DNA from: a virus
IMG/VR virus record: IMGVR_UViG_3300020202_000053
Coordinates: 1-38,848 of that record
DNA: 38,848 nucleotides
Reading direction: 5' to 3' (one strand)
The position numbers were made by a program, and so were the translations under genes. Positions 7,066-37,084 of this stretch are shown here, in pieces. The first letter of the stretch is position 1; each line of letters opens with the position of its first letter. Under the pieces are notes generated by a model that was not told the DNA's origin, made no database searches, and was given only the letters and a program-made list of their open reading frames with translations.

Positions 7066-9368
7066 GGCGCGAACTCCACAATGGTGAGCTTGACCTGGGG
7101 CGTGGACGCGCCGGCCGTCTGCGCCTGGGTGGTGTAGGTGAAGGCGGCACGGTTGCTCGCCAGCTCGACCGGGACGTTCGTGACGGTGCCCCAGTCGCTG
7201 TTGGGCAGGGTCAGGGCGCCCAGGAACTGCGGCGCGTTGCCGGCGCGCGGGCGGGCCAGCAGCACCCGGCCGCCCAGCTGGGTCGCGGTGGCGATGCCCT
7301 GGACGCCGCCAGAGAGGCCGAAGCGCAGGGTGGACGTAGCCGAGAGGGTCGTGGCGCCCGACGGGGAGAGCGTACCCGCGACGGAGAGGGCGGTGCCGGA
7401 GATGTCCACCTGATGGATCTGATTCTCTGCCGTGGCGGTGCTGAACGCCAGGAACCCACTGGAGGTCTGGGGGAAGTTGCCGCCGCTCGCCTGGCTCCAG
7501 AGGCTGTAGAGGATCGTCCCGGCGGATAGCGTGCCGCTGCTGTTGGTCAGCACCACATGACGGGATGCAGCGCCAGTGCCGCTGTTGCCGAAGGTGAACA
7601 GCGCCGTCGTGCCGGAGAGCGCGTAGAGGTTCGGCTGGAAGCGGGAGGCGTTGAAATCGGTGTAGGCCTGATCCGCGAGCGATAAGGTTTCCACCGTCAG
7701 CGGCGTGCCGAAGGTCACCGTCGTGCCGCTCACCCCCACATGCACCGCGCGCACCAGCGTGCCCGACGCTTGGTAGTAGCCGACCACGTAGGAGGTGGCG
7801 GAAAGCTGGCAGGACGGCAGGACAACCGCGCTCACCACGTCATTGACGCCCGCGCTCGTCCCGACCGTGATGGTCGTTCCCGACACGGACAGCACCACGC
7901 CCCGGATGGAGAAGGGCGTTCCCGCCGTGCCGCTGTCGTCGATGTAAAGGGCAAGGGCCGTGGTGTCGGAGACACGGTAGCACCCTAGAGCCTGGGAACT
8001 GGTCGTTCCGAGAGCGGACGTGGCGGCGCCAGAGGTTGGTGTCGACCCGGTGGCGTCGATCACTTCGGCGAAGACATTGCCGTTCAGCCACAACTGCACG
8101 AACACGCCGGCCGTGAGCTGGGCCACTAAGGGCTGCCCGGTGAAGGAGAACGCCGACGCGCTGGCGTCCGTTAGGTGCCCGCTGCTGACGGTGCAGGTCG
8201 TGCCGGCAACCGTCACATTGTAGACCGTGGCGCCGGCATAGATCAGAGCCTTGCCGTCGTTGATCCGGAAGCCTTGGGAGACGGCCACGTTGCTCGCGAC
8301 GATCAGCGCGGGCGTTCCCACCGTCGCCGGATAGGTCGAGTGATCCACCGCCACCACGAAGGGATGGCCGGAGCTGTTGCGGACGAAGTGTAGGCTGAGC
8401 GTGTCCGTCAGCTTCACCGCCACCTCTACCGAGGTCGTGTAGGTGCTGCTGAAGGTGTTGTCGCAGATCACCAGCCAGGGCTCGTACCCCACGCCAGCAA
8501 GGCCCCAGCCGCCGGCAATGCTGCCGTTGTCGTTCAGGAAGCAGGAAACCACCCCGCCCGGCGCCACCGCCCCCAGCAGCGTCCCGGCGCTGTTCCGGAC
8601 GCCGAACGCCCGGGTGCCGGTGTTCTGGAACACGAAAATCGGGCCGCCCTCATCCAGCGTCGTGGCATCGGGCAGCGTCACCGACTGGCTGTTGCTCGCC
8701 ATCGCGACGGTCTGCACGCGGCTGGAGGTGCTGGTCAGGGTGGTGGCGATGGTGATCGCAGCGCCGCCCGCCCCGCCGGCGATGTCCACTTCCGACCACT
8801 CGACGCCGGTTTCATCCGTGGTTACGCGGAGGTACTTTCCCGAATTGCCCGCCCGCGCCGGCAGCGTGCCGGGGGCGATGGCCGCCGCGAGGATGGCCGT
8901 GTCCATCTGGCCTTTGGTCACGGCATCGGTCGAGGCGGTGCCGGTGGCAAGCCCGGTGAGCTTCGCCCCACCCTGGTCCGTGCCGACGACCTGGCGCATG
9001 GTCGTGCCGTCGCCCTGGACCACCGCACGCCCGCTGGCGGGGATGGTCACGCCCGATCCGGCGGAGTAGCCGAAGATGATGGGGGCAGAGCAGTCGTTCA
9101 CCACGACCTTGACGCACTCCACTCCGGGATAGACGACGTTGCCGCCGGTCCCGGTGAAGCGGAAGCCCATGTTGCGGGCTTCGTCGGAGGCGTAGTTGGT
9201 GGAGGTGAGGGTCGCGGTTCCTCCGGTCAGGGCGATGGTCTCAACGCCCTGCACGGCCTCGTCGATGAGGTCGAGCGCCTGGTCGTTCAGGGTCGTGCCC
9301 CAGACGTTCAGGCCCGAGCCGGTTTCCTGCTTGACCGCACGGATGCGCTGGGTAGGCGAGTTAGCCAT
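7062..9368 (-). CDS. Tail fibre / tail spike protein (768 aa)
   Basis: ORF track. GAGG lies upstream of ATG 9368. The N-terminus has a typical fibre-anchor sequence (...ASTDAVTKGQMDTA...), followed by a long S/T/G/A/V-rich beta region. Confidence 0.65.
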   Translation of the reverse strand: MANSPTQRIRAVKQETGSGLNVWGTTLNDQALDLIDEAVQGVETIALTGGTATLTSTNYASDEARNMGFRFTGTGGNVVYPGVECVKVVVNDCSAPIIFGYSAGSGVTIPASGRAVVQGDGTTMRQVVGTDQGGAKLTGLATGTASTDAVTKGQMDTAILAAAIAPGTLPARAGNSGKYLRVTTDETGVEWSEVDIAGGAGGAAITIATTLTSTSSRVQTVAMASNSQSVTLPDATTLDEGGPIFVFQNTGTRAFGVRNSAGTLLGAVAPGGVVSCFLNDNGSIAGGWGLAGVGYEPWLVICDNTFSSTYTTSVEVAVKLTDTLSLHFVRNSSGHPFVVAVDHSTYPATVGTPALIVASNVAVSQGFRINDGKALIYAGATVYNVTVAGTTCTVSSGHLTDASASAFSFTGQPLVAQLTAGVFVQLWLNGNVFAEVIDATGSTPTSGAATSALGTTSSQALGCYRVSDTTALALYIDDSGTAGTPFSIRGVVLSVSGTTITVGTSAGVNDVVSAVVLPSCQLSATSYVVGYYQASGTLVRAVHVGVSGTTVTFGTPLTVETLSLADQAYTDFNASRFQPNLYALSGTTALFTFGNSGTGAASRHVVLTNSSGTLSAGTILYSLWSQASGGNFPQTSSGFLAFSTATAENQIHQVDISGTALSVAGTLSPSGATTLSATSTLRFGLSGGVQGIATATQLGGRVLLARPRAGNAPQFLGALTLPNSDWGTVTNVPVELASNRAAFTYTTQAQTAGASTPQVKLTIVEFAP

Positions 9369-19572: not shown

Positions 19573-20314
19573 GATGGCTTCCCTTCGTGTCGTCCACTAC
19601 GCGGCGGATCCAGTTCCGCCAGGTTCCTGACCAATCCGACTTCCGGCCGTCCTTCCCGGCCTTGCCGCGCCAGTAGTCGCGGAACTTGTCGGCTTCACGG
19701 TCCACCCGGGGCGGGTCCAAGCCCTGGCTCTCGGCCCACAGGCGCCAGTCGTCGGGCAACTCCCAGCCTTCGGGGAGCCGGCTACCTTGGCCGTCGCGCG
19801 GATTGGTTTTCGGGAGGACGGTGACGACGGCGCCCGGCGCATCGGGGCGCGCGCCTCCCCTAGAAGCGGGAGCTTCTAGGGTATTATCTTCATTCCCTTG
19901 ATTTCCTTCATTCTTCTTTGCGTCGCCGCTGCGTCGCTCCTGCGTCGCGTCTGCGTCGGTGGGTGCGTCGGTGACGCGCTCCACGCGCTGATATTCGTCG
20001 TAGTTACAGATGGTTATGAGCGTCTGACCTGCGTCGGTGACGCATACGATCATCCCCTCCTCGACCAATCTCGCGAGGAACCGACGCACCTTGGGGTCAT
20101 CCCACCCCCAGGCACCGGCCAGGAAGCGCAGCGAGTAGGTGAGCTGCCCCCGGGTCAGGGTGACCGACTTCTTGCCGATGCCGGTGCGGGTGTCCTGGTA
20201 GACCGCGTTCTCGATGAGCCAGGCCCACGCAGCGCGACGGCAGAAAGGCTCCCGCGCGCCCCCGAGGGCGGGGTTGTCCATCCAGCCACGGTGCATGAGG
20301 TAGAAACCGCTCAT
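19505..20314 (-). CDS. Replication initiator / replisome-organiser-like protein (269 aa; start refined)
   Basis: ATG 20314 forms an ATGA overlap with the upstream stop. The N-terminal winged-helix-like domain reads MSGFYLMHRGWMDNPALGG...LTRGQLTYSLRFLAGAWGW. The C-terminal motif ADKFRDYWRGKAGKDGRKSDWSGTWRNWIRR is typical of phage O/DnaD-type organisers, from memory. Confidence 0.5.
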   Translation of the reverse strand: MSGFYLMHRGWMDNPALGGAREPFCRRAAWAWLIENAVYQDTRTGIGKKSVTLTRGQLTYSLRFLAGAWGWDDPKVRRFLARLVEEGMIVCVTDAGQTLITICNYDEYQRVERVTDAPTDADATQERRSGDAKKNEGNQGNEDNTLEAPASRGGARPDAPGAVVTVLPKTNPRDGQGSRLPEGWELPDDWRLWAESQGLDPPRVDREADKFRDYWRGKAGKDGRKSDWSGTWRNWIRRVVDDTKGSHHVQAPRQIDPSARRQAILAGMS

Positions 20315-21348
20315 TCGCAGGCTCCCCAGGCATTGCAGGCGGTGCCCATCTCCTCGTGGAGGAAGAGCATCATGTCGTACTGACGGCCGCCCCGGCTGGT
20401 CTTGGACCACTCCGCGACTTCCCAAATGCCCGGCATCGGAATGTCAGCGCGCCCCTGATGCTCACCGGGCGTCTTGTCGTGGGCGAAGAAGCTGGAGAGC
20501 CCGGCGCGGCTGCACTCACCCACCAGGGCCTCCCATTCAGCGATCCGCTGAAACTCCTCGGGAAAGCGGATGGCGATCTCGCGGATTTCGGCCTTGCGCG
20601 ACATGATGCAGGGCATGCAGCCGACGCGGTTCATGCCGTGGTCGTACAGCGGGTTCCACGCAACACCGTGCTTCCGATGCAGGTCGAACACCTCATCTCG
20701 TGTGAGGTGATGGATCGGACGGTAGGTCCAGACGGTGCCGCCGGTATCGACATCGCGGGAGCGCTGGAGCCGGGGGAGCGTGGCGCGGGCGGCGCTCTCT
20801 TCAGCGCGGACGCCCTGCCACGACACGATGGTGTGCCCGGTCGCCAGCAGCGGCCTGTTCACCTGCGTCTGGATCGGGACGATCTTCAGTAGTTCCGTGC
20901 AGAACTTGGCCTTCTTCGATGGGAAGCGGCCCTTCATCATGCACAGGTCGAGGAACGGGTTTCCGGTGGGGTGCAGCAGGTCGAGGGCCCGCGCAACGCG
21001 ATCCGCCGGGACGCCCTTGAGGGGCCATTGCTCCGCGATGTAGCGGCGCTTGCGCTCGATGTCCGCCGTGAAGTCCGCTCGCACCCAGCGAATGGCCGGG
21101 CCGCCCGTCTTCTCGGGCAGCGTGCGCACGAATTCATAGGTCCAGGGGTGTTCGTTGCCCGTGTCGGCAAACACCGCCTGGAATGGCTTGCCGCGCTCCA
21201 GAGCCTTCAGATAGGTGGCGGTGCTGTCCTTGCCGCCGCTGACACTCACGAGGTGGACGACGCGCAGCGGCCGGGGCAACGGATTGCTCTGATCTGCCGT
21301 GAGATTGGGGAAGCCGCTGGCGGGGTCTCTGAGAACCAGATCATCCAT
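20311..21348 (-). CDS. PAPS-reductase-family PP-loop protein, DndC-like (345 aa)
   Basis: ORF track. PP-loop motif VSVSGGKDS is present, plus conserved Cys clusters (GCMPC and a C-terminal CNAWGAC). Confidence 0.85.
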   Translation of the reverse strand: MDDLVLRDPASGFPNLTADQSNPLPRPLRVVHLVSVSGGKDSTATYLKALERGKPFQAVFADTGNEHPWTYEFVRTLPEKTGGPAIRWVRADFTADIERKRRYIAEQWPLKGVPADRVARALDLLHPTGNPFLDLCMMKGRFPSKKAKFCTELLKIVPIQTQVNRPLLATGHTIVSWQGVRAEESAARATLPRLQRSRDVDTGGTVWTYRPIHHLTRDEVFDLHRKHGVAWNPLYDHGMNRVGCMPCIMSRKAEIREIAIRFPEEFQRIAEWEALVGECSRAGLSSFFAHDKTPGEHQGRADIPMPGIWEVAEWSKTSRGGRQYDMMLFLHEEMGTACNAWGACE

Positions 21349-23835: not shown

Positions 23836-23910
23836 TTGCGCTAATCGCAACGTCATCGCAAGTGGAAAGTGCGTCAATCGCAATGGGAGTTTATTGCGCG
23901 TTACGCAATA
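23836..23910. promoter_or_regulatory. Three operator-like palindromes, TTGCG-N5-CGCAA, between cro-like gene and cI
   Basis: 23836-23850 is TTGCGctaatCGCAA. 23869-23883 is GTGCGtcaatCGCAA. 23894-23908 is TTGCGcgttaCGCAA, which extends to the 7-5-7 palindrome TATTGCG..CGCAATA at 23892-23910. Confidence 0.7.
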
Positions 23911-23918
23911 CTCCGGCG

Positions 23919-24623
23919 ATGGAACTGGACTGGATCAAGCGGCGGCTCGAAGAGCTGAAGCCGCAGGGCAAGACACAGGCGGGCCTGGCCAAGGCGCTGG
24001 GCATCGAACCGTCTGGCGTGTCCCGGATGCTCAAGGGCGAGCGCCAGATCAAGGCTCGGGAGTTGGCGACGATCTACGCCTACCTTGGCGTTGGCGACGC
24101 ATCCGCGCGGCCGCCTGAAGACGGTATCTCCGTCACCGTCCCCGAGCCTGACACATACGGCGAACCTTTGGAGATCCGCCCGGCGGACGTCGAGGTTCCC
24201 GCGGCCGCCAGCTTGCGCCGCGACGTGCCGGTCTATGGCACGGCTGTGGGCGGCGATGACGCGGAATTCCTGTGGAACGGCGAGACGATCGACTATGTGC
24301 GGCGGCCGCCCGGCTTGGTGGGCGTCAAGGAGGCGTTCGCTATCTACGTCTCCGGTTCATCCATGAGCCCGCGCTACGAGGAAGGCGAGCTGGTCTACAT
24401 CCACCCCAAGCGGCCCGCCCGCCCCGGCGATGACGTGGTGATCGAGCTGCACGGCAAGGACGGCCAAGCTGGCAAGTGCTTCCTGAAGCGGTTTATCCGC
24501 CGGGCGCCCGATCTGGTCCATGCGGAGCAGTTCTTCCCCGTGCGTGGGCCGGTGACCTATCCGACCCGGGAAGTGCGGAACATCTACAAGGTTTTGACCA
24601 ACGCCGAGCTGCTGGGGCTGTGA
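23919..24623 (+). CDS. cI: CI/LexA-type repressor: XRE HTH plus S24 peptidase domain (234 aa; start refined)
   Basis: In frame with ORF 23631-24623, whose N-terminal part is antisense to cro. Sequence begins MELDWIKRRLEELKPQGKTQAGLAKALGIEPSGVSRMLKGER. The catalytic Ser is in VSGSSMSP and the Lys in KCFLKRF. An AVGG-type autocleavage region lies upstream of these. Confidence 0.9.
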   Translation: MELDWIKRRLEELKPQGKTQAGLAKALGIEPSGVSRMLKGERQIKARELATIYAYLGVGDASARPPEDGISVTVPEPDTYGEPLEIRPADVEVPAAASLRRDVPVYGTAVGGDDAEFLWNGETIDYVRRPPGLVGVKEAFAIYVSGSSMSPRYEEGELVYIHPKRPARPGDDVVIELHGKDGQAGKCFLKRFIRRAPDLVHAEQFFPVRGPVTYPTREVRNIYKVLTNAELLGL

Positions 24624-24625
24624 GA

Positions 24626-24964
24626 ATGACAGGGGCGACCGATAATTCGGAGGCCGATACCGGTCCTGAAAAAACCCGTGGAATAAGCCCAGATGGCGCG
24701 ATCCGCTTTTTGGCCACGATGGGCGCTGACATGAGATGTCAGTGCTGCAAGAACGATACTTTTCATGTTCTGTCTGACGGCGATCTCGCTCCGACCGACA
24801 GGCTTCAGCAGTGGAATACTGATGGTAGGCCGAACGGCCGTTTTCTCGATCTGCTGGCGGTAGCCTGCAGTCAGTGCGGCTACCTGATTTACTTTCTCTC
24901 CGACATCGTAGAACGGTGGATTAGAGACAATCCAGAGGTGGTCGATGACGCCGGAAAAGAATAA
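24626..24964 (+). CDS. Zinc-ribbon-like protein co-transcribed with cI (112 aa; start refined)
   Basis: In frame with ORF 24476-24964. ATG 24626 lies 2 nt after the cI stop. Cys pairs are C38-x-C40-C41 and C81-x-x-C84. Codon usage is visibly more A/T-rich than in the flanks. Confidence 0.55.
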   Translation: MTGATDNSEADTGPEKTRGISPDGAIRFLATMGADMRCQCCKNDTFHVLSDGDLAPTDRLQQWNTDGRPNGRFLDLLAVACSQCGYLIYFLSDIVERWIRDNPEVVDDAGKE

Positions 24965-25388
24965 CGTCACGCCTCTCTGGAAGGGTAAGGACACCCCCTC
25001 CGGCGGAGGGGAAGGGAACTCCTATACGTTGATGGGGGTTGGCAGCGGCGGTGGGAATGGCCATGGTAGTGATATGCAGGAGCGCGTTGCCAAGCTCGAA
25101 ACCCACTTCGAGTACATCCGCAAGGACCTGGACGAGATCAAGTCCGGGCTGGGAGCGGTTGTGACTGGCATGGAAGCCATGGTCCGCAACAATCCGACGA
25201 AGGCCGACCTGTACGCCTGGAAAGTCCAGTGGACCGCCATCTGCGTCGGTGCAGTGGCGATCATCGTTGGCGGAATTATCGGCGGCCTGGGCTGGATTAA
25301 ACCGGACGCCTCCCCGCCGCCGCCGGTAACCATCACGGCTCCGGCTCCCGTCATCGTTCAGGTTCCGTCGCAGCCACCAGCGCCGTAA
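24945..25388 (+). CDS. Membrane protein: coiled coil plus one TM plus Pro-rich tail, XhlA-like architecture (147 aa)
   Basis: ORF track. AGAGGTGG lies upstream of the ATG. Coiled-coil segment ERVAKLETHFEYIRKDLDEIK, TM helix WTAICVGAVAIIVGGIIGGLGWI, and C-terminal tail PPPPVTITAPAPVIVQVPSQPPAP. Confidence 0.6.
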   Translation: MTPEKNNVTPLWKGKDTPSGGGEGNSYTLMGVGSGGGNGHGSDMQERVAKLETHFEYIRKDLDEIKSGLGAVVTGMEAMVRNNPTKADLYAWKVQWTAICVGAVAIIVGGIIGGLGWIKPDASPPPPVTITAPAPVIVQVPSQPPAP

Positions 25389-25410: not shown

Positions 25411-25441
25411 AACCCCGCCCTCTCCGGACGGCGGGGTTTTT
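25411..25441 (+). terminator. Intrinsic terminator ending the cI operon
   Basis: Stem CCCCGCC (25413-25419) pairs with GGCGGGG (25430-25436), followed by TTTTT (25437-25441). It begins 23 nt after the stop at 25388. Confidence 0.8.
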
Positions 25442-25451
25442 CATGTGATGC

Positions 25452-25497
25452 ATCTTGCGATTTCCGCATTGACATGCGATTGCGGTTATCGCAAGAT
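25452..25497 (+). promoter_or_regulatory. Rightward early promoter overlapped by two more TTGCG-N5-CGCAA operators
   Basis: TTGACA lies at 25469-25474, then 17 nt, then CAAGAT at 25492-25497. Operators are 25455-25469 (TTGCGatttcCGCAT) and 25480-25494 (TTGCGgttatCGCAA). A 10-bp inverted repeat ATCTTGCGAT/ATCGCAAGAT frames the site. Confidence 0.6.
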
Positions 25498-29920: not shown

Positions 29921-30099
29921 TGGAAAGCCTCCCCGACTTCCGCGAGTTCTACGCCGCCCGCAACCGCATGCCGCTGGGCGAATGGGGGCACCTTGGCGAG
30001 CAGTACGAGGACGTGCTGCGCCGCTTCATGGACACGGCAGCCGACTATCTCGACGCCGGCCGCGCCGCCCTATCTGTCGGAGAGAGCAATGACGCCTGA
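29920..30099 (+). CDS. Hypothetical protein (59 aa)
   Basis: ORF track frame, with TGATG coupling. Confidence 0.45.
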   Translation: MESLPDFREFYAARNRMPLGEWGHLGEQYEDVLRRFMDTAADYLDAGRAALSVGESNDA

Positions 30100-30559
30100 T
30101 GACCGCCTCTTCACGAACGCCATGCCCAGCTGGCCGCGCATCCTGACGCGGGATCTGGCCGCCGAGTACATGGACGTGACGCCCGACGAGCTGGACCGCC
30201 TCTGGCAGCGCAACCGCATCCAGGGGAAGTTCACGCATCCGATCTGGGGCGAGGCGTGGGACCTCTATGCCCTCTCCCCCATGGAGGAGAAGCGCGGCCG
30301 GAGCTTCGTCTACTTCATCCAGACCGAGAGCGGCCCCATCAAGATCGGCCACTCCAAGAACCCGGAGGAGCGGATGCGGGCCATGCAGACCGCCCACCAC
30401 GAGGAGCTGACCATGCTGTTCCAGCTCTCCGGCGGCGCCTGGATGGAGGAGCAGATGCACCGCCGGTTCTACCGCAGCCACCTGCGGGGCGAGTGGTTCA
30501 AGCCCACGCCCATGCTGGTCAACAGCATCAACGCCTGGAAGAGGATCGGTCATGGCTGA
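30089..30559 (+). CDS. Xis-like HTH fused to T5orf172 (GIY-YIG-related) domain (156 aa; start refined)
   Basis: In frame with ORF 29993-30559. The N-terminal ILTRDLAAEYMDVTPDELDRL resembles the excisionase HTH of the next gene. The C-terminal domain reads SFVYFIQTESGPIKIGHSKNPEERMRAMQT...HLRGEWFK. Confidence 0.7.
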   Translation: MTPDDRLFTNAMPSWPRILTRDLAAEYMDVTPDELDRLWQRNRIQGKFTHPIWGEAWDLYALSPMEEKRGRSFVYFIQTESGPIKIGHSKNPEERMRAMQTAHHEELTMLFQLSGGAWMEEQMHRRFYRSHLRGEWFKPTPMLVNSINAWKRIGHG

Positions 30560-30845
30560 GCCCGCCCGCCACCCGACCCAGCTCCCCGTCTCCTGCCCCC
30601 CTCGCGGCCTGAACCGCGAGCAGGCGGCGGAATATGTCGGGGTCAAGCTGACCAAGTTCCTGGAGATGGTCGAGGAGGGGCTGATGCCCCGCCCCAAGCA
30701 CATCGGCACCCGCACCGTGTGGGACCGCGTGGCCCTTGACGCCGCCTTCGATGCGCTGCCCGATAGCGGCGAAGCGTCCGAGTCGTCGGCTCCCCAGGTC
30801 ACCGCGAACCCCTGGGACAGCCTGAAGGCCAAGGGGCGCGCCTGA
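30552..30845 (+). CDS. xis: Excisionase-family HTH protein (97 aa)
   Basis: ORF track. Sequence LNREQAAEYVGVKLTKFLEMVEEGLMPRPKHIGTRTVWDRVALD. It lies directly upstream of int and is coupled to it (TGATG). Confidence 0.7.
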   Translation: MAEPARHPTQLPVSCPPRGLNREQAAEYVGVKLTKFLEMVEEGLMPRPKHIGTRTVWDRVALDAAFDALPDSGEASESSAPQVTANPWDSLKAKGRA

Positions 30846-32011
30846 TGACGGGAGCGCGGGACATGGCGGAATTTCGGCTGCGGGATGGGACCGGCTCCAT
30901 CCGCCTGAAATACATCGTGATCGACATCGACCGCTACGGCCAGGCCCGCGTCTATGTCCGCCGCGCCGGCCGCAAGAAGGTCCGTCTCAACGAGACGCCC
31001 GGTACCCCTGCCTTCATGGAGGAGTACCGCGCCGCGCTGGAGGGCCGCCCCTATGGCGCCGCGGCGATCAAGCGCCCGGTGATCGCCCAGGCCGCGCCCG
31101 GCACCCTGCGCTGGATGGTCGAGCAGTATTACGCCTGCGGCGAGTTCCGCCTACTGGACGTAGCCACGCGCCGCATGCGCCGGAACATCCTGGAAGCCCT
31201 GTGCCGGGAGCACGGCGACAAGCCGGTCAATCTGCTCTCCGAGGAGCACATCTACATCCTCCGGGACGAGAAGGCGGACACGCCCCACGCCGCGAACACG
31301 CTGCTGAAGGTGCTGCGCCACATGTTCCGCATCGGCGCCAAGCAGAAGTGGGTGCGCCGGAACGTCACCAAGGACGTGGAGCCGCTGTCCGCCCCAAGCG
31401 AGGGGCACCATAGCTGGACCGTCGAGGAGGTGAAGCAGTTCGAGGAGGCGCACCCCATCGGCACGAAGGCGCGGCTCGCCATGGCGCTGCTGCTCTACAC
31501 CGGCCAGCGCCGCTCCGATGTGGTGAAGATGGGGCCGCAGCATGTGCGCGACGGCTGGCTGACCTTCACCCAGGTCAAAAACGCCGGCCGCAAGCCCGTC
31601 CACATGTCGATACCGGTTTTGCCCGAGCTGCAGGCCATCATCGACGCAACGCCGTCCGGGCATCTGGCCTACCTGACCACGCAGTTCGGCAAGCCCTACA
31701 CCGCCGCCGGGTTCGGCAACGCCTTCCGGGACTGGTGCAATAAGGCTGGCCTTCCCCACTGCTCCGCCCACGGCCTGCGCAAGGCCGCTGCCGCGATGCT
31801 GGCGGAGCGGGGCGCGACCGAGCACCAGATCATGGCGATCACCGGCCACCGCAGCTTGTCGGAGGTGCAGCGCTACACCCGCGCCGCCCGCCAGAAGCTG
31901 CTTGCCGGAGAGGCCGCCAAGCTGATGGGCGGCGAACAGACGACGGACGAAACTGTCCAACTTTCCGGTGCGTCGGAAAAAGTTGGACAGAAACGTCCCG
32001 TAACCCCTTGA
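30845..32011 (+). CDS. int: Tyrosine recombinase / phage integrase (388 aa)
   Basis: ORF track. The catalytic region reads ...CSAHGLRKAAAAMLAERGATEHQIMAITGHRSLSEVQRYT.... The start could instead be ATG 30863. Confidence 0.93.
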   Translation: MTGARDMAEFRLRDGTGSIRLKYIVIDIDRYGQARVYVRRAGRKKVRLNETPGTPAFMEEYRAALEGRPYGAAAIKRPVIAQAAPGTLRWMVEQYYACGEFRLLDVATRRMRRNILEALCREHGDKPVNLLSEEHIYILRDEKADTPHAANTLLKVLRHMFRIGAKQKWVRRNVTKDVEPLSAPSEGHHSWTVEEVKQFEEAHPIGTKARLAMALLLYTGQRRSDVVKMGPQHVRDGWLTFTQVKNAGRKPVHMSIPVLPELQAIIDATPSGHLAYLTTQFGKPYTAAGFGNAFRDWCNKAGLPHCSAHGLRKAAAAMLAERGATEHQIMAITGHRSLSEVQRYTRAARQKLLAGEAAKLMGGEQTTDETVQLSGASEKVGQKRPVTP

Positions 32012-32462: not shown

Positions 32463-32812
32463 CCGTCCGCACCTGCCTCCCTGACGCCCCCGGCTTGGTG
32501 GTCCATCGCCTGCCCCTGCCGCAATGCTGTCCGGTGTCCGGCAACCCGCTGCCCGGCTCCACCCTGACCATGGCCTACCTGCCCAAGGATCGGGTCTTCC
32601 CGGTCGAGTGGTTGGAGAGCCTGATCCGCGAGTACCAGGGCGGCCATGCCTCCCGGAACATCCGGAACATGGAGGAGATGGTCCAGGACCTCGCCATCCG
32701 AGCTGCCGAGAACACCGGCGTCCGGGTGCGGGTGCGGGCGGACCTGAAGATCAACCCGCCGCAGGGCGGCACCGTGCAGGACCTCCTCATGACCGCGAGG
32801 GCGCGGCCATGA
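32459..32812 (+). CDS. QueF-family T-fold protein lacking the NADPH-binding lysines (QueF-L-like, 117 aa, GTG start)
   Basis: ORF track. CCPVSGNP matches the QueF catalytic-Cys motif (CP-x-[ST]-G-[QN]-P). VEWLESLIREY sits where the QueF motif E-[SL]-K-[SA]-h-K-[LY]-[YFW] would be, but both Lys are replaced. A C-terminal QGG sits in the RGG position. Confidence 0.6.
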   Translation: MTVRTCLPDAPGLVVHRLPLPQCCPVSGNPLPGSTLTMAYLPKDRVFPVEWLESLIREYQGGHASRNIRNMEEMVQDLAIRAAENTGVRVRVRADLKINPPQGGTVQDLLMTARARP

Positions 32813-33663
32813 GGTTCTTCGTCGGCATCCATCAGCCGTGTGACGCCCATAAGGTGGACGCAGCGTTCATCTCCGTCAGCCGCCTAGAGAACAGGATATC
32901 CGGTTTTCTGGTTGGCGACTGGATCATGGACAGCAAGGGCTTTTCCGAAGTGGCTGGCCATGGTCGCTACCGGATGTCGGTGCAGGAGCATGCCGCCCAA
33001 ATCCGCCGATGGTCAAAGAACGGCAACCTGATGGCGGCCATCGCCCAAGATTGGATGTGCGAGGATCCAGTTCTAAAGCGTGTCCTGATTGAAGAGGGAA
33101 AGCTCGACCCGCCGCCAGGATTTGATTTCGGCGATGCTCAAGCTTGGAAAAAGCTTGGTGATCTGCCGTGGGCCTATGAGGGCCAGCGCGAAGATCAGAT
33201 CCTGGAGCATCAGCGCCGCACAATAGAGCGCTATGACGCCCTGATGACGTGCGATGTCGGCGGCGTCTACATCATGCCGGTCCTGCAAGGCTACGCGCCT
33301 GAGGACTACGTGCGCCACATCCGCATGTACGGAGACCGGCTGAAGCCGGGCATGTGGGTGGGCGTCGGCTCAGTCTGCAAGCGCAACAGCAATCCAGAGA
33401 CGGTCGCGGACGTGCTGGCGGCCATCAAGGCCGAGCGCCCCGACCTTCTGTTGCACGGCTTCGGCGTCAAGACCACGGCCCTGGGGGATGTGGAGGTGCG
33501 GGACATGCTCCATACAGCCGACAGCATGGCGTGGAGCTATAACGCCCGCATCAACGGCCGGAACGGCAACGACGTGCGCGAGGCCCTGGCCTTCGCCGCC
33601 AAGATCGCCGCCATGCCCCGTCGCCCGAAGCAGCTCTCAATGTTCGGGAGAGCCACCGCCTAA
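32809..33663 (+). CDS. dpdA: TGT-like DNA transglycosylase, DpdA-like (284 aa; start refined)
   Basis: In frame with ORF 32524-33663, with ATGA coupling at 32809. Motifs DSKGFSE, GVGSVCKR, LHGFGVK and ADSMAWS, as recalled for DpdA/TGT-fold enzymes. The N-terminal half is visibly lower in GC. Confidence 0.6.
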   Translation: MRFFVGIHQPCDAHKVDAAFISVSRLENRISGFLVGDWIMDSKGFSEVAGHGRYRMSVQEHAAQIRRWSKNGNLMAAIAQDWMCEDPVLKRVLIEEGKLDPPPGFDFGDAQAWKKLGDLPWAYEGQREDQILEHQRRTIERYDALMTCDVGGVYIMPVLQGYAPEDYVRHIRMYGDRLKPGMWVGVGSVCKRNSNPETVADVLAAIKAERPDLLLHGFGVKTTALGDVEVRDMLHTADSMAWSYNARINGRNGNDVREALAFAAKIAAMPRRPKQLSMFGRATA

Positions 33664-35995: not shown

Positions 35996-36487
35996 TCACT
36001 TCACGTCGTTGTAGAAGGCGTGGGCGCCGATGACGCACGCCGGCTGCCGCTTCTCACCCCACGCCGCAGGCCAGCCCATGGCGGTGGTGTGGTAGTGCAG
36101 CGAAGAGGATGTCGGGTCCGGCTCCGTTCCGGTGATGACCGCCAGCGCCGCCAGCAAGCAGCGTTGATAGGCTGGGTCCGCCAGTGCGTCGGTGAGGAAC
36201 TGATGGTTGTCCGACCACGCGTCGAGAAGCCGGCGGTTGGGATCGCCCGCGTTCCAGCACGAGAACTGCCACTTCGCCTTGCATGCACTGGTCAGGGAGC
36301 CGTCGCCGAACAGCGGGTGGGGCTTACGAGTGCGGGTCGCGAAGGCCCTCGCCTGCTCTGCCCGGTTCCGCATCACCCAGCCGCAGGCGATGCGGTCGGC
36401 ATGGGTGGAGCCCCGCGCCTCCCCGTAGATCGTAAGCGCTAGGACGCGAAGATCCATCGCGTCCGCCTTCAGCGGCACGTTGGTCAT
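35996..36487 (-). CDS. Endolysin, SleB-type cell-wall hydrolase (163 aa)
   Basis: ORF track. Motif LALTIYGEARGS, with conserved Cys/Trp pattern downstream. Confidence 0.8.
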   Translation of the reverse strand: MTNVPLKADAMDLRVLALTIYGEARGSTHADRIACGWVMRNRAEQARAFATRTRKPHPLFGDGSLTSACKAKWQFSCWNAGDPNRRLLDAWSDNHQFLTDALADPAYQRCLLAALAVITGTEPDPTSSSLHYHTTAMGWPAAWGEKRQPACVIGAHAFYNDVK

Positions 36488-36847: not shown

Positions 36848-37084
36848 GGGTGCTCTCGCCTTCCGTAGCCTATCTGGTGTATAGTTGGTTATTGCTGCAC
36901 TACATCTTGGGCCGGTCCTGCGAGGGGCTGGCTCTTTTCGTTTGGATCGGTAGCGAAAATCAGAGCGCCGATTGCTCCCCACCCAGGCAAAGGGCTGGTG
37001 ATAGGCTTCACTCTCCCCATGGACTCTAGGACCGGTTGCGAGTCATGCTCCGGGCATATCCAAGGGGGTAGTTGGGCGGGGGCT

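Follow-up and report, generated by a model that had tools for sequence, protein, structure and literature searches.

A conserved pair of passenger genes behind the repressor of a temperate phage, encoding a predicted zinc-ribbon protein and a predicted tail-anchored membrane protein

Introduction

What a prophage contributes to its host from day to day is encoded by the genes that share a transcript with the repressor. The first example was rexAB of lambda, whose mechanism is still under debate; the genes are arranged in the order PRM-cI-rexA-rexB-tImm, and OL/PL, reading in the same direction, comes next. Other anti-phage proteins expressed by prophages from near their immunity genes are SieA and SieB of P22, gp15 of HK97, lactococcal Sie2009 and gp30/gp31 of the mycobacteriophage Sbash. 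Genes for XhlA, a small coiled-coil membrane protein of the Bacillus prophage PBSX (PF10779), are found in lysis cassettes beside holin and amidase genes. In this study, two overlapping open reading frames (ORFs), ORF1 and ORF2, are described, which directly follow the cI-type repressor gene in the virus record IMGVR_UViG_3300020202_000053 of IMG/VR. The whole stretch analysed, positions 1 to 38,848 of that record (38,848 nucleotides), is referred to as the window.

The ORF1-ORF2 pair is a conserved, recurrent module of many phages. Its gene structure, the layout for co-transcription with cI, the family membership of both proteins and the conservation of both the pairing and the position behind repressors were observed directly. 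On the basis of position and architecture, a membrane-acting exclusion or abortive-infection function is tentatively proposed, with a probability of about 40%.

Organization of the immunity region

With 67% G+C, the window looks like a complete temperate-phage genome, in which the virion genes occupy the minus strand as far as about 17 kb, the immunity switch lies near 23.6-25.5 kb and a plus-strand early operon extends to the integrase gene (Table 1). The public contigs L001 and L002 were 100% identical to the window when aligned, and both carry the same gene call for cI as well as an annotated cro-like gene. The repressor showed the Pfam domains PF01381 HTH_3 (E = 1.7e-6) and PF00717 Peptidase_S24 (E = 7.9e-9) and matched phrog_4 (E = 1.9e-23). 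For the cro-like gene, weak helix-turn-helix (HTH) matches were obtained (YdaS_toxin, 5.7e-4; phrog_8008, DNA-binding, 3.9e-3).

The original prediction, made from the sequence of the window, had placed two overlapping plus-strand ORFs 2 nt behind cI and ahead of a terminator, and both the coordinates and the layout were confirmed. The TGA stop codon of cI (24621-24623) is separated by a 2-nt gap from the ATG of ORF1 at 24626, ORF1 and ORF2 overlap by 20 nt, and a GAGGTG motif is located 7-12 nt ahead of the ATG of ORF2. The terminator after ORF2 has a 9+2-bp G+C-rich stem (25411-25436) followed by UUUUU, with a minimum free energy of -25.2 kcal/mol (z = -2.25), and no terminator-like site was detected by the scan between cI and the ORF2 stop codon. 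This placement for co-transcription with cI, with a lambda-like topology, is as predicted. In contrast, the terminator is not the only clear one in the window, as had been claimed, because a second strong hairpin is present near the lysis genes.

The operator-like motif TTGCG-N5-CGCAA, with up to one mismatch, was found five times in 38.8 kb, always within two sets of three and two sites (23836-23908 and 25455-25494); the chance expectation is 1.6, and five sites were reached in one of 100 shuffles. The cI-ORF1-ORF2 block is flanked on both sides by these only five sites of the window, and the bracketing of the cassette by operators was predicted correctly. The PL-like promoter points, in the same direction as cI, into the early/recombination/integrase operon; it was identified by eye, its -10 box matching 3/6 positions and its score being under the promoter-scan threshold. 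Since the second operator pair overlaps a promoter into the early operon, the topology of the window corresponds to PRM-cI-rexA-rexB-tImm/OL-PL of lambda.

The G+C content at third codon positions (GC3) was 57.5% for ORF1, 75% for ORF2 and 84% for cI, in agreement with the earlier remark that the cassette is more A/T-rich than the repressor gene, and the overall G+C content of ORF1 was 53.7%. By its composition, the cassette is foreign to the phage. No close cultured-phage relative of the immunity region of the window was found; only a PAPS-reductase-like gene was matched. The features of the window are detailed in Table 1.

Table 1. Features of the window, with the immunity region first and other features after it.
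Feature	Position	Strand	Remarks
cro-like gene, 82 aa	23586..23834	-	Divergent from cI; second arm of the immunity switch
Operator set 1, three 15-bp TTGCG-N5-CGCAA palindromes	23836-23850, 23869-23883, 23894-23908		Interval between the cro-like gene and cI
cI-type repressor, 234 aa, HTH_3 + Peptidase_S24	23919..24623	+	LexA-like, self-cleaving type
ORF1, 112 aa, predicted zinc ribbon	24626..24964	+	phrog_4293 family
ORF2, 147 aa, predicted single-pass membrane protein	24945..25388	+	phrog_3556/6324/6136 family
Intrinsic terminator	25411..25441	+	Closes the cI-ORF1-ORF2 unit
Operator set 2, two palindromes	25455-25469, 25480-25494	+	Overlaps the PL-like promoter
PL-like promoter	TTGACA (25469-25474) - 17 nt - CAAGAT (25492-25497)	+	Read by eye
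Antisense ORF, 136 aa	24584-24994	-	Open across ORF1
Integrase gene	30845-32011		End of the early operon
Endolysin gene, Hydrolase_2 type	35996-36487	-	With an adjoining unassigned ORF
Second terminator-like hairpin	36909-36934	+	11-bp stem, then TTTTCGTTT
PAPS-reductase-like gene	~20311-21348		Sole part of 20-28 kb with cultured-phage relatives
T5orf172/MUG113 gene	~30089-30559		Within the early operon
DpdA-like gene	~32809-33663		Just past the integrase gene; possible 7-deazaguanine DNA modification

Conservation of the pair behind phage repressors

Loci were gathered by exact-protein look-ups and pattern scans and were labelled with hidden Markov models (HMMs) for both ORF families, S24 repressors and HIRAN proteins. 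An ORF1-family gene was present in 13 distinct loci (the window, L015, L016, L023, L026, L028, L030, L032, L033, L039, L042, L043 and L044), and in every one of them it was directly followed by a gene for a coiled-coil protein with a single C-terminal transmembrane (TM) helix. Nearly all of these loci show a 4-20-nt overlap of the two genes, L043 having a 4-nt gap instead. In the alphaproteobacterial loci (the window, L015, L016, L032, L033 and L039), the homology of the downstream gene to ORF2 is clear; in L023 it is distant, with matches to the HMM of the ORF2 alignment A2 (E = 2.5e-10) and to the same three PHROGs as ORF2. The remaining loci (L026, L028, L030, L042, L043 and L044) have at this place an architectural equivalent, in which a MNDITRxEL...IExRMDxRI helix recurs.

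A survey of the pair's conservation behind cI had been suggested, and an S24 or HTH repressor was found upstream, in the same orientation, in seven loci: an S24 repressor directly precedes the pair in the window, L016, L023, L028 and L043, lies two small genes upstream of it in L026, and is replaced by an HTH repressor in L015. The repressor-linked pattern is not confined to one lineage, since L026 is related to temperate phages of Pseudomonas. At least 12 different phages carry a relative of ORF2 in their repressor operon. In L042 (2-1525), where the zinc-ribbon protein is extended N-terminally by about 75 aa, the gene ahead of the pair encodes not a cI-type repressor but a regulator that combines an HTH with a C-terminus like sigma-70 region 4.

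The ORF1 family

ORF1 matched phrog_4293 (E = 1.9e-6), a family of proteins of about 100 aa annotated as of unknown function. An exhaustive HMMER search of 1.8 billion representatives yielded about 25 relatives of 86-145 aa, aligned over nearly their full length (E 3e-6 to 9e-4) and sharing 24-33% identity; all 24 aligned relatives matched phrog_4293 as well (best 8.9e-13). Within this alignment C38, C41, C81, C84, G85 and W98 are invariant, F28 is nearly invariant and C40 is variable, which gives the invariant family signature CxxC...CxxCG plus Trp. The cysteines of ORF1 are at positions 38, 40, 41, 81 and 84. Of the two Cys pairs proposed originally, C81-x2-C84 stands, whereas the first one is C38-x2-C41.

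The AlphaFold2 (AF2) model of ORF1, run with the family alignment, had a mean confidence (pLDDT) of 81 and showed a helix (22-35), four strands (46-49, 58-63, 69-81, 87-91) bearing the two CxxC knuckles, and a second helix (92-101). With two family-conserved CxxC knuckles on modelled beta-hairpins, the protein is a predicted C4 zinc ribbon. It is acidic (19 D+E versus 11 K+R) and carries no visible catalytic motif. ORF1 is, as predicted from its sequence and model, a small acidic cytoplasmic zinc-ribbon protein.

Searches of Pfam and NCBIfam with ORF1 gave nothing significant, and its relatives reached no Pfam family, with weak generic zinc-ribbon matches only. Foldseek of the model against PDB and BFVD retrieved only generic zinc ribbons (NrdR, Rpp21 and the MqsA N-terminal domain) at non-significant values (E >= 0.01), no structural relative of the fold being found in these databases; PDB sequence profiles for the families of ORF1 and ORF2 returned coiled-coil or zinc-knuckle noise only. 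A word-index homology search retrieved ORF1 alone, and searching the indexed database with the profile of the A3 alignment added nothing further.

Gene callers skipped ORF1 on the identical contigs L001 and L002, while its homologues are annotated as genes in nine other loci. ORF1 is nevertheless a real gene, as it has about 25 full-length distant homologues. A naive GC3-based caller favours the frame of the antisense ORF (Table 1), and zinc-ribbon genes of this type may be under-called systematically.

The ORF2 family

A total of 42 ORF2 homologues were found. The relatives placed by a genome scan were from Alphaproteobacteria only, namely Acetobacterales, Acidisoma, Brevundimonas, Novosphingobium, Sphingomonas, Stappia, Salinarimonas and Arenibaculum. 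ORF2 matched phrog_3556 (3e-9), phrog_6324 (2.3e-8) and phrog_6136 (2.4e-6), which were also matched by 24, 19 and 21 of 26 relatives, respectively; the three are annotated as of unknown function. Nothing significant was obtained against Pfam or NCBIfam.

From the N- to the C-terminus, ORF2 comprises a variable N-terminal part, a Gly-rich linker (11 Gly in residues 17-42), a conserved helix (RLETHFEYVRKDLDEIK; alignment consensus RVxRLETHFEYVRKDLDEIK), a PTKxDL turn, a TM helix and a variable Pro-rich tail of 28 aa with 39% Pro. In alignment A2 the residues R47, L51, E52, D63 and G109 are invariant, the first four being in the conserved helix and G109 in the TM helix (~93-118), which is conserved and rich in Gly and other small residues (IIVGGIIGGLxWIK; small-residue-rich run IIVGGIIGGLGW). 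There is a single hydrophobic segment, whose top 19-mer covers residues 98-116 (mean Kyte-Doolittle hydropathy 2.34), and the AF2 model shows residues 1-41 as disordered, followed by helices at 42-82 and 86-118. Composition, hydropathy and model agree with the architecture described earlier, of a Gly-rich N-terminal part, a helix, one TM helix and a Pro-rich tail. As the TM helix is C-terminal and a signal peptide is absent, the bulk of the protein is predicted to be cytoplasmic; the conservation resides in the cytoplasmic helix and the TM helix, not in the periplasmic part. ORF2 is a predicted single-pass, C-terminally anchored inner-membrane protein.

An identity as i-spanin was rejected: with a C-terminal TM helix and no signal sequence, the coiled coil is expected on the cytoplasmic side. 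The membrane proteins paired with zinc ribbons were searched for an N-terminal docking motif in common, and none was convincing.

ORF2 had also been called XhlA-like. A remote resemblance stands at the level of PHROGs, since phrog_1193 ("hemolysin") was matched by 15 of the 26 relatives (best 2.2e-4) and phrog_10340 ("holin/anti-holin") by 10 (best 3.1e-4); for ORF2 itself the match to Phage_holin_3_6 had E = 0.3. A Pfam relationship does not stand: ORF2 gave no XhlA match at E <= 1 (gathering threshold, 34.7 bits), and matches were limited to two of the 26 relatives (E >= 0.04) and to the ORF2 counterpart of L023 (E = 1.4e-3, 19.2 bits). The resemblance to the hemolysin and holin/anti-holin PHROGs would fit a membrane-perturbing effector.

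Alternative partners and genomic contexts

The prediction of a two-gene module holds for the ORF1 family, whose pairing was kept in 13/13 loci, but the ORF2 family was also found with other partners. Relatives of ORF2 lacking a zinc-ribbon neighbour were located at or near the end of the repressor operon in L003, L009-L011, L013, L014, L017, L018 and L021; a same-strand repressor of the S24 or HTH type precedes them in L003, L009, L013, L014, L017, L018 and L021. Directly ahead of them lies another small ORF, 76-119 aa long, whose stop codon overlaps the following start codon in the cases checked. No similarity of these partners to ORF1 or to one another was detectable, and for this reason they are not claimed as one family. 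The frame S24 repressor-partner-ORF2 homologue-HIRAN protein contains the zinc-ribbon partner in L016 and a partner of another kind in L013, L014 and L021. The zinc-ribbon protein is thus one of at least two interchangeable partners and no obligatory part of the module, considering also that the pair exists outside prophages.

The HIRAN-domain protein of 132-177 aa (Pfam, 1.7e-11; PADLOC candidate PDC-M03B, 5.6e-7) is encoded after the ORF2 homologue in L013 (4293-4703), L014 (4144-4677), L016 (4315-4713) and L021 (4269-4706); its gene overlaps that of the ORF2 homologue in L013, L014 and L021 and abuts it in L016. In this subgroup the protein may represent a third component. In L003, the ORF2 homologue is followed directly by a HEPN_AbiV-domain gene (8543-9148), and the interval separating the repressor from the pair holds a DUF6232 gene and an unassigned ORF of 128 aa; the arrangement looks like a small defence island in the repressor operon. 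Lipoprotein-like ORFs, with a signal peptide followed by Cys, were observed between the repressor and the pair of partner and ORF2 homologue in L009 (7273-7629) and L013 (3266-3601), and are possible exclusion lipoproteins.

Outside prophages, the zinc-ribbon pair is found as a free cassette in the chromosomal loci L032, L033 and L039. An IS1595-like transposase gene adjoins it in L032 (4278-5267, minus strand) and L039 (2750-3586, plus strand). Transposases of the same type adjoin chromosomal ORF2-family genes in L034 (4446-5360, minus strand) and L041 (4252-4932, minus strand). Their location beside chromosomal copies suggests spread of the cassette mediated by insertion sequences (IS).

Proposed function and alternative explanations

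ORF1 and ORF2 would constitute a translationally coupled passenger cassette of the repressor transcript, made with cI in lysogens. ORF2 would be the core component, tail-anchored in the inner membrane, and its conserved charged cytoplasmic helix and small-residue-rich TM helix point to oligomerisation in the membrane. ORF1 would be made in a fixed ratio with ORF2, probably binding and controlling it; the coupled translation and strict co-occurrence are consistent with a physical ORF1-ORF2 complex. A lysogen could then be protected against other phages by a block of an early membrane step of infection or, alternatively, by a membrane lesion released on infection, which would be abortive and follow a Rex-like logic. 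The membrane lesion fits better, because of the remote XhlA/holin-like similarity. The division of labour proposed originally, a soluble sensor and a membrane effector, is purely inferential.

This exclusion or abortive-infection function is favoured by the predicted expression in lysogens together with mobility, neighbours of defence type and the remote similarity to XhlA/holin-like families. The operon layout, the foreign composition, the conserved pairing, the recurrent position behind repressors and the location of the phage's own lysis genes elsewhere also speak for it. Several points weigh against it. The periplasmic tail of ORF2 is short and of low complexity, unlike typical entry blockers, and the coiled-coil similarity to XhlA/holin PHROGs may be compositional. 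Non-defence lysogenic-conversion genes also occupy the position behind the repressor. The ORF2 family is present in ordinary-looking chromosomal neighbourhoods (L007 and L012), and in one viral contig (L019, 3678-4333) a small partner and an ORF2 homologue are found among apparent virion structural genes. Searches of Pfam, NCBIfam and PADLOC revealed no homology to established families of defence, exclusion or toxin proteins, with 0 matches at E <= 10 in PADLOC-DB 2.0 for either ORF, in line with the earlier statement that neither protein was recognised as a member of a named defence family; for pair members of other loci, the PADLOC matches were limited to coiled coils with low scores. Finally, tblastn and blastn searches with ORF1, ORF2, P0052, P0060, the L030 partner and the L030 DNA against cultured phages, PLSDB plasmids and E. 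coli genomes returned nothing usable, so that existing experiments cannot be borrowed from relatives.

A bolder version regards the pair as the founding example of a new widespread anti-phage system of Alpha- and Gammaproteobacteria, in which a tail-anchored XhlA-like effector with a Gly-rich TM helix would stay inactive in the lysogen until triggered by small, exchangeable cytoplasmic partners that recognise different invading phages, a sensor-swap design carried on the cI transcript; this is somewhat doubtful.

Among the alternatives, a non-defence function in lysogeny survives best and is rather unlikely. The pair would modulate the envelope or physiology of the host (lysogenic conversion, or an ElaB/YqjD-like stress protein) or feed a signal into the repressor switch. 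The tight linkage to S24-type repressors is in agreement with it, as are the non-phage chromosomal contexts of the ORF2 family in L007 and L012 and the regulator preceding the pair in L042. However, free pairs exist without any repressor, and neither protein has a signalling or DNA-binding domain. The resemblance to ElaB (NCBIfam NF007709, E = 0.023) is weak, scoring 15 bits against a cutoff of 139.

It is quite unlikely that the pair is a toxin-antitoxin-like addiction cassette, with ORF2 as a membrane toxin and ORF1 as a zinc-ribbon antitoxin, which would stabilise the carrier element and defend it at most as a by-product. Such a cassette would be small, translationally coupled and with the soluble protein first, as this one is; the unit moves between prophages and chromosomal loci, two of them IS-flanked, and its G+C content is foreign. 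Antitoxins with zinc-ribbon domains exist, and the N-terminal domain of one of them, MqsA, was among the top Foldseek matches, but non-significantly (E = 0.77, TM-score 0.20). Moreover, ORF1 has no HTH or other DNA-binding domain for autoregulation, the prophage cassette has no promoter of its own and relies on that of cI, and relatives of ORF2 are paired with unrelated partners.

A lysis accessory, with ORF2 as an XhlA-type aid or timer of holin lysis, ORF1 as its regulator and the position behind cI incidental, is very unlikely. ORF2 shares the architecture of XhlA, a coiled coil plus one TM helix, and the PHROG matches of its relatives and the XhlA match of the L023 partner point in the same direction, whereas the Pfam result for ORF2 itself does not. 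This explanation is disfavoured because of the operon position, the gene being inside a terminator-sealed repressor transcription unit in at least 12 phages, and because of the distant lysis genes, the endolysin gene of the window being about 10 kb from ORF2 on the opposite strand. That ORF1 is non-coding, an untranslated spacer or leader before ORF2, is hardly credible in spite of its omission by gene callers, its lack of GC3 bias (0.575) and the open antisense frame, since the family evidence (full-length homologues with an invariant signature, phrog_4293 matches throughout the alignment, the confident model and the gene calls in other loci) is against it.

The pair is carried by numerous uncultured temperate phages whose alphaproteobacterial hosts live in soil and water, and by at least one phage of the Pseudomonas type. 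No function had previously been assigned to either protein family. If the exclusion or abortive-infection function is true, the pair would be a compact new defence module of 0.76 kb with swappable partners, and a function would be given to four PHROG families annotated as unknown; if it is not defence, the pair is still a conserved membrane module, placed for expression in lysogens, that merits a phenotype screen.

Comparison with known systems

In the literature searched, no report was found on the pairing of phrog_4293 with phrog_3556/6324/6136 or on their position behind repressors, and searches on XhlA and exclusion, repressor-downstream defence, immX of phage 16-3, and glycine zippers and abortive infection returned nothing on the families of ORF1 and ORF2.

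The Sie proteins, gp15 of HK97 and gp30/gp31 of Sbash are similar to the pair in being small membrane proteins, or soluble plus membrane pairs, beside immunity genes; neither ORF matched a PHROG of the superinfection-exclusion category or a PADLOC model. XhlA resembles ORF2 as a small coiled-coil protein with a single TM helix. In contrast to the XhlA genes of lysis cassettes, ORF2-family genes are located in repressor operons, and ORF2 differs from XhlA by its Gly-rich linker, its Pro-rich tail and its zinc-ribbon partner.

The likeness to RexAB of lambda is a positional analogy only. In both cases two passenger genes, for a soluble and a membrane protein (the latter assignments being predictions for ORF1 and ORF2), directly follow cI and are succeeded by a terminator and then by OL/PL or its counterpart. 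Both Pfam and PADLOC hold Rex models, and neither ORF had a RexAB match in Pfam or, at E <= 10, in PADLOC. RexA has 279 aa and lacks a zinc ribbon, whereas ORF1 is a predicted zinc ribbon of 112 aa; RexB has four TM helices, ORF2 a single C-terminal one; and the genes of ORF1 and ORF2 overlap, unlike rexA and rexB. Judged from its sequence, the pair is an immunity-region passenger cassette with a soluble and a membrane component, unrelated in sequence to rexAB and positionally equal to it, and represents a second soluble-plus-membrane pair in the same slot.

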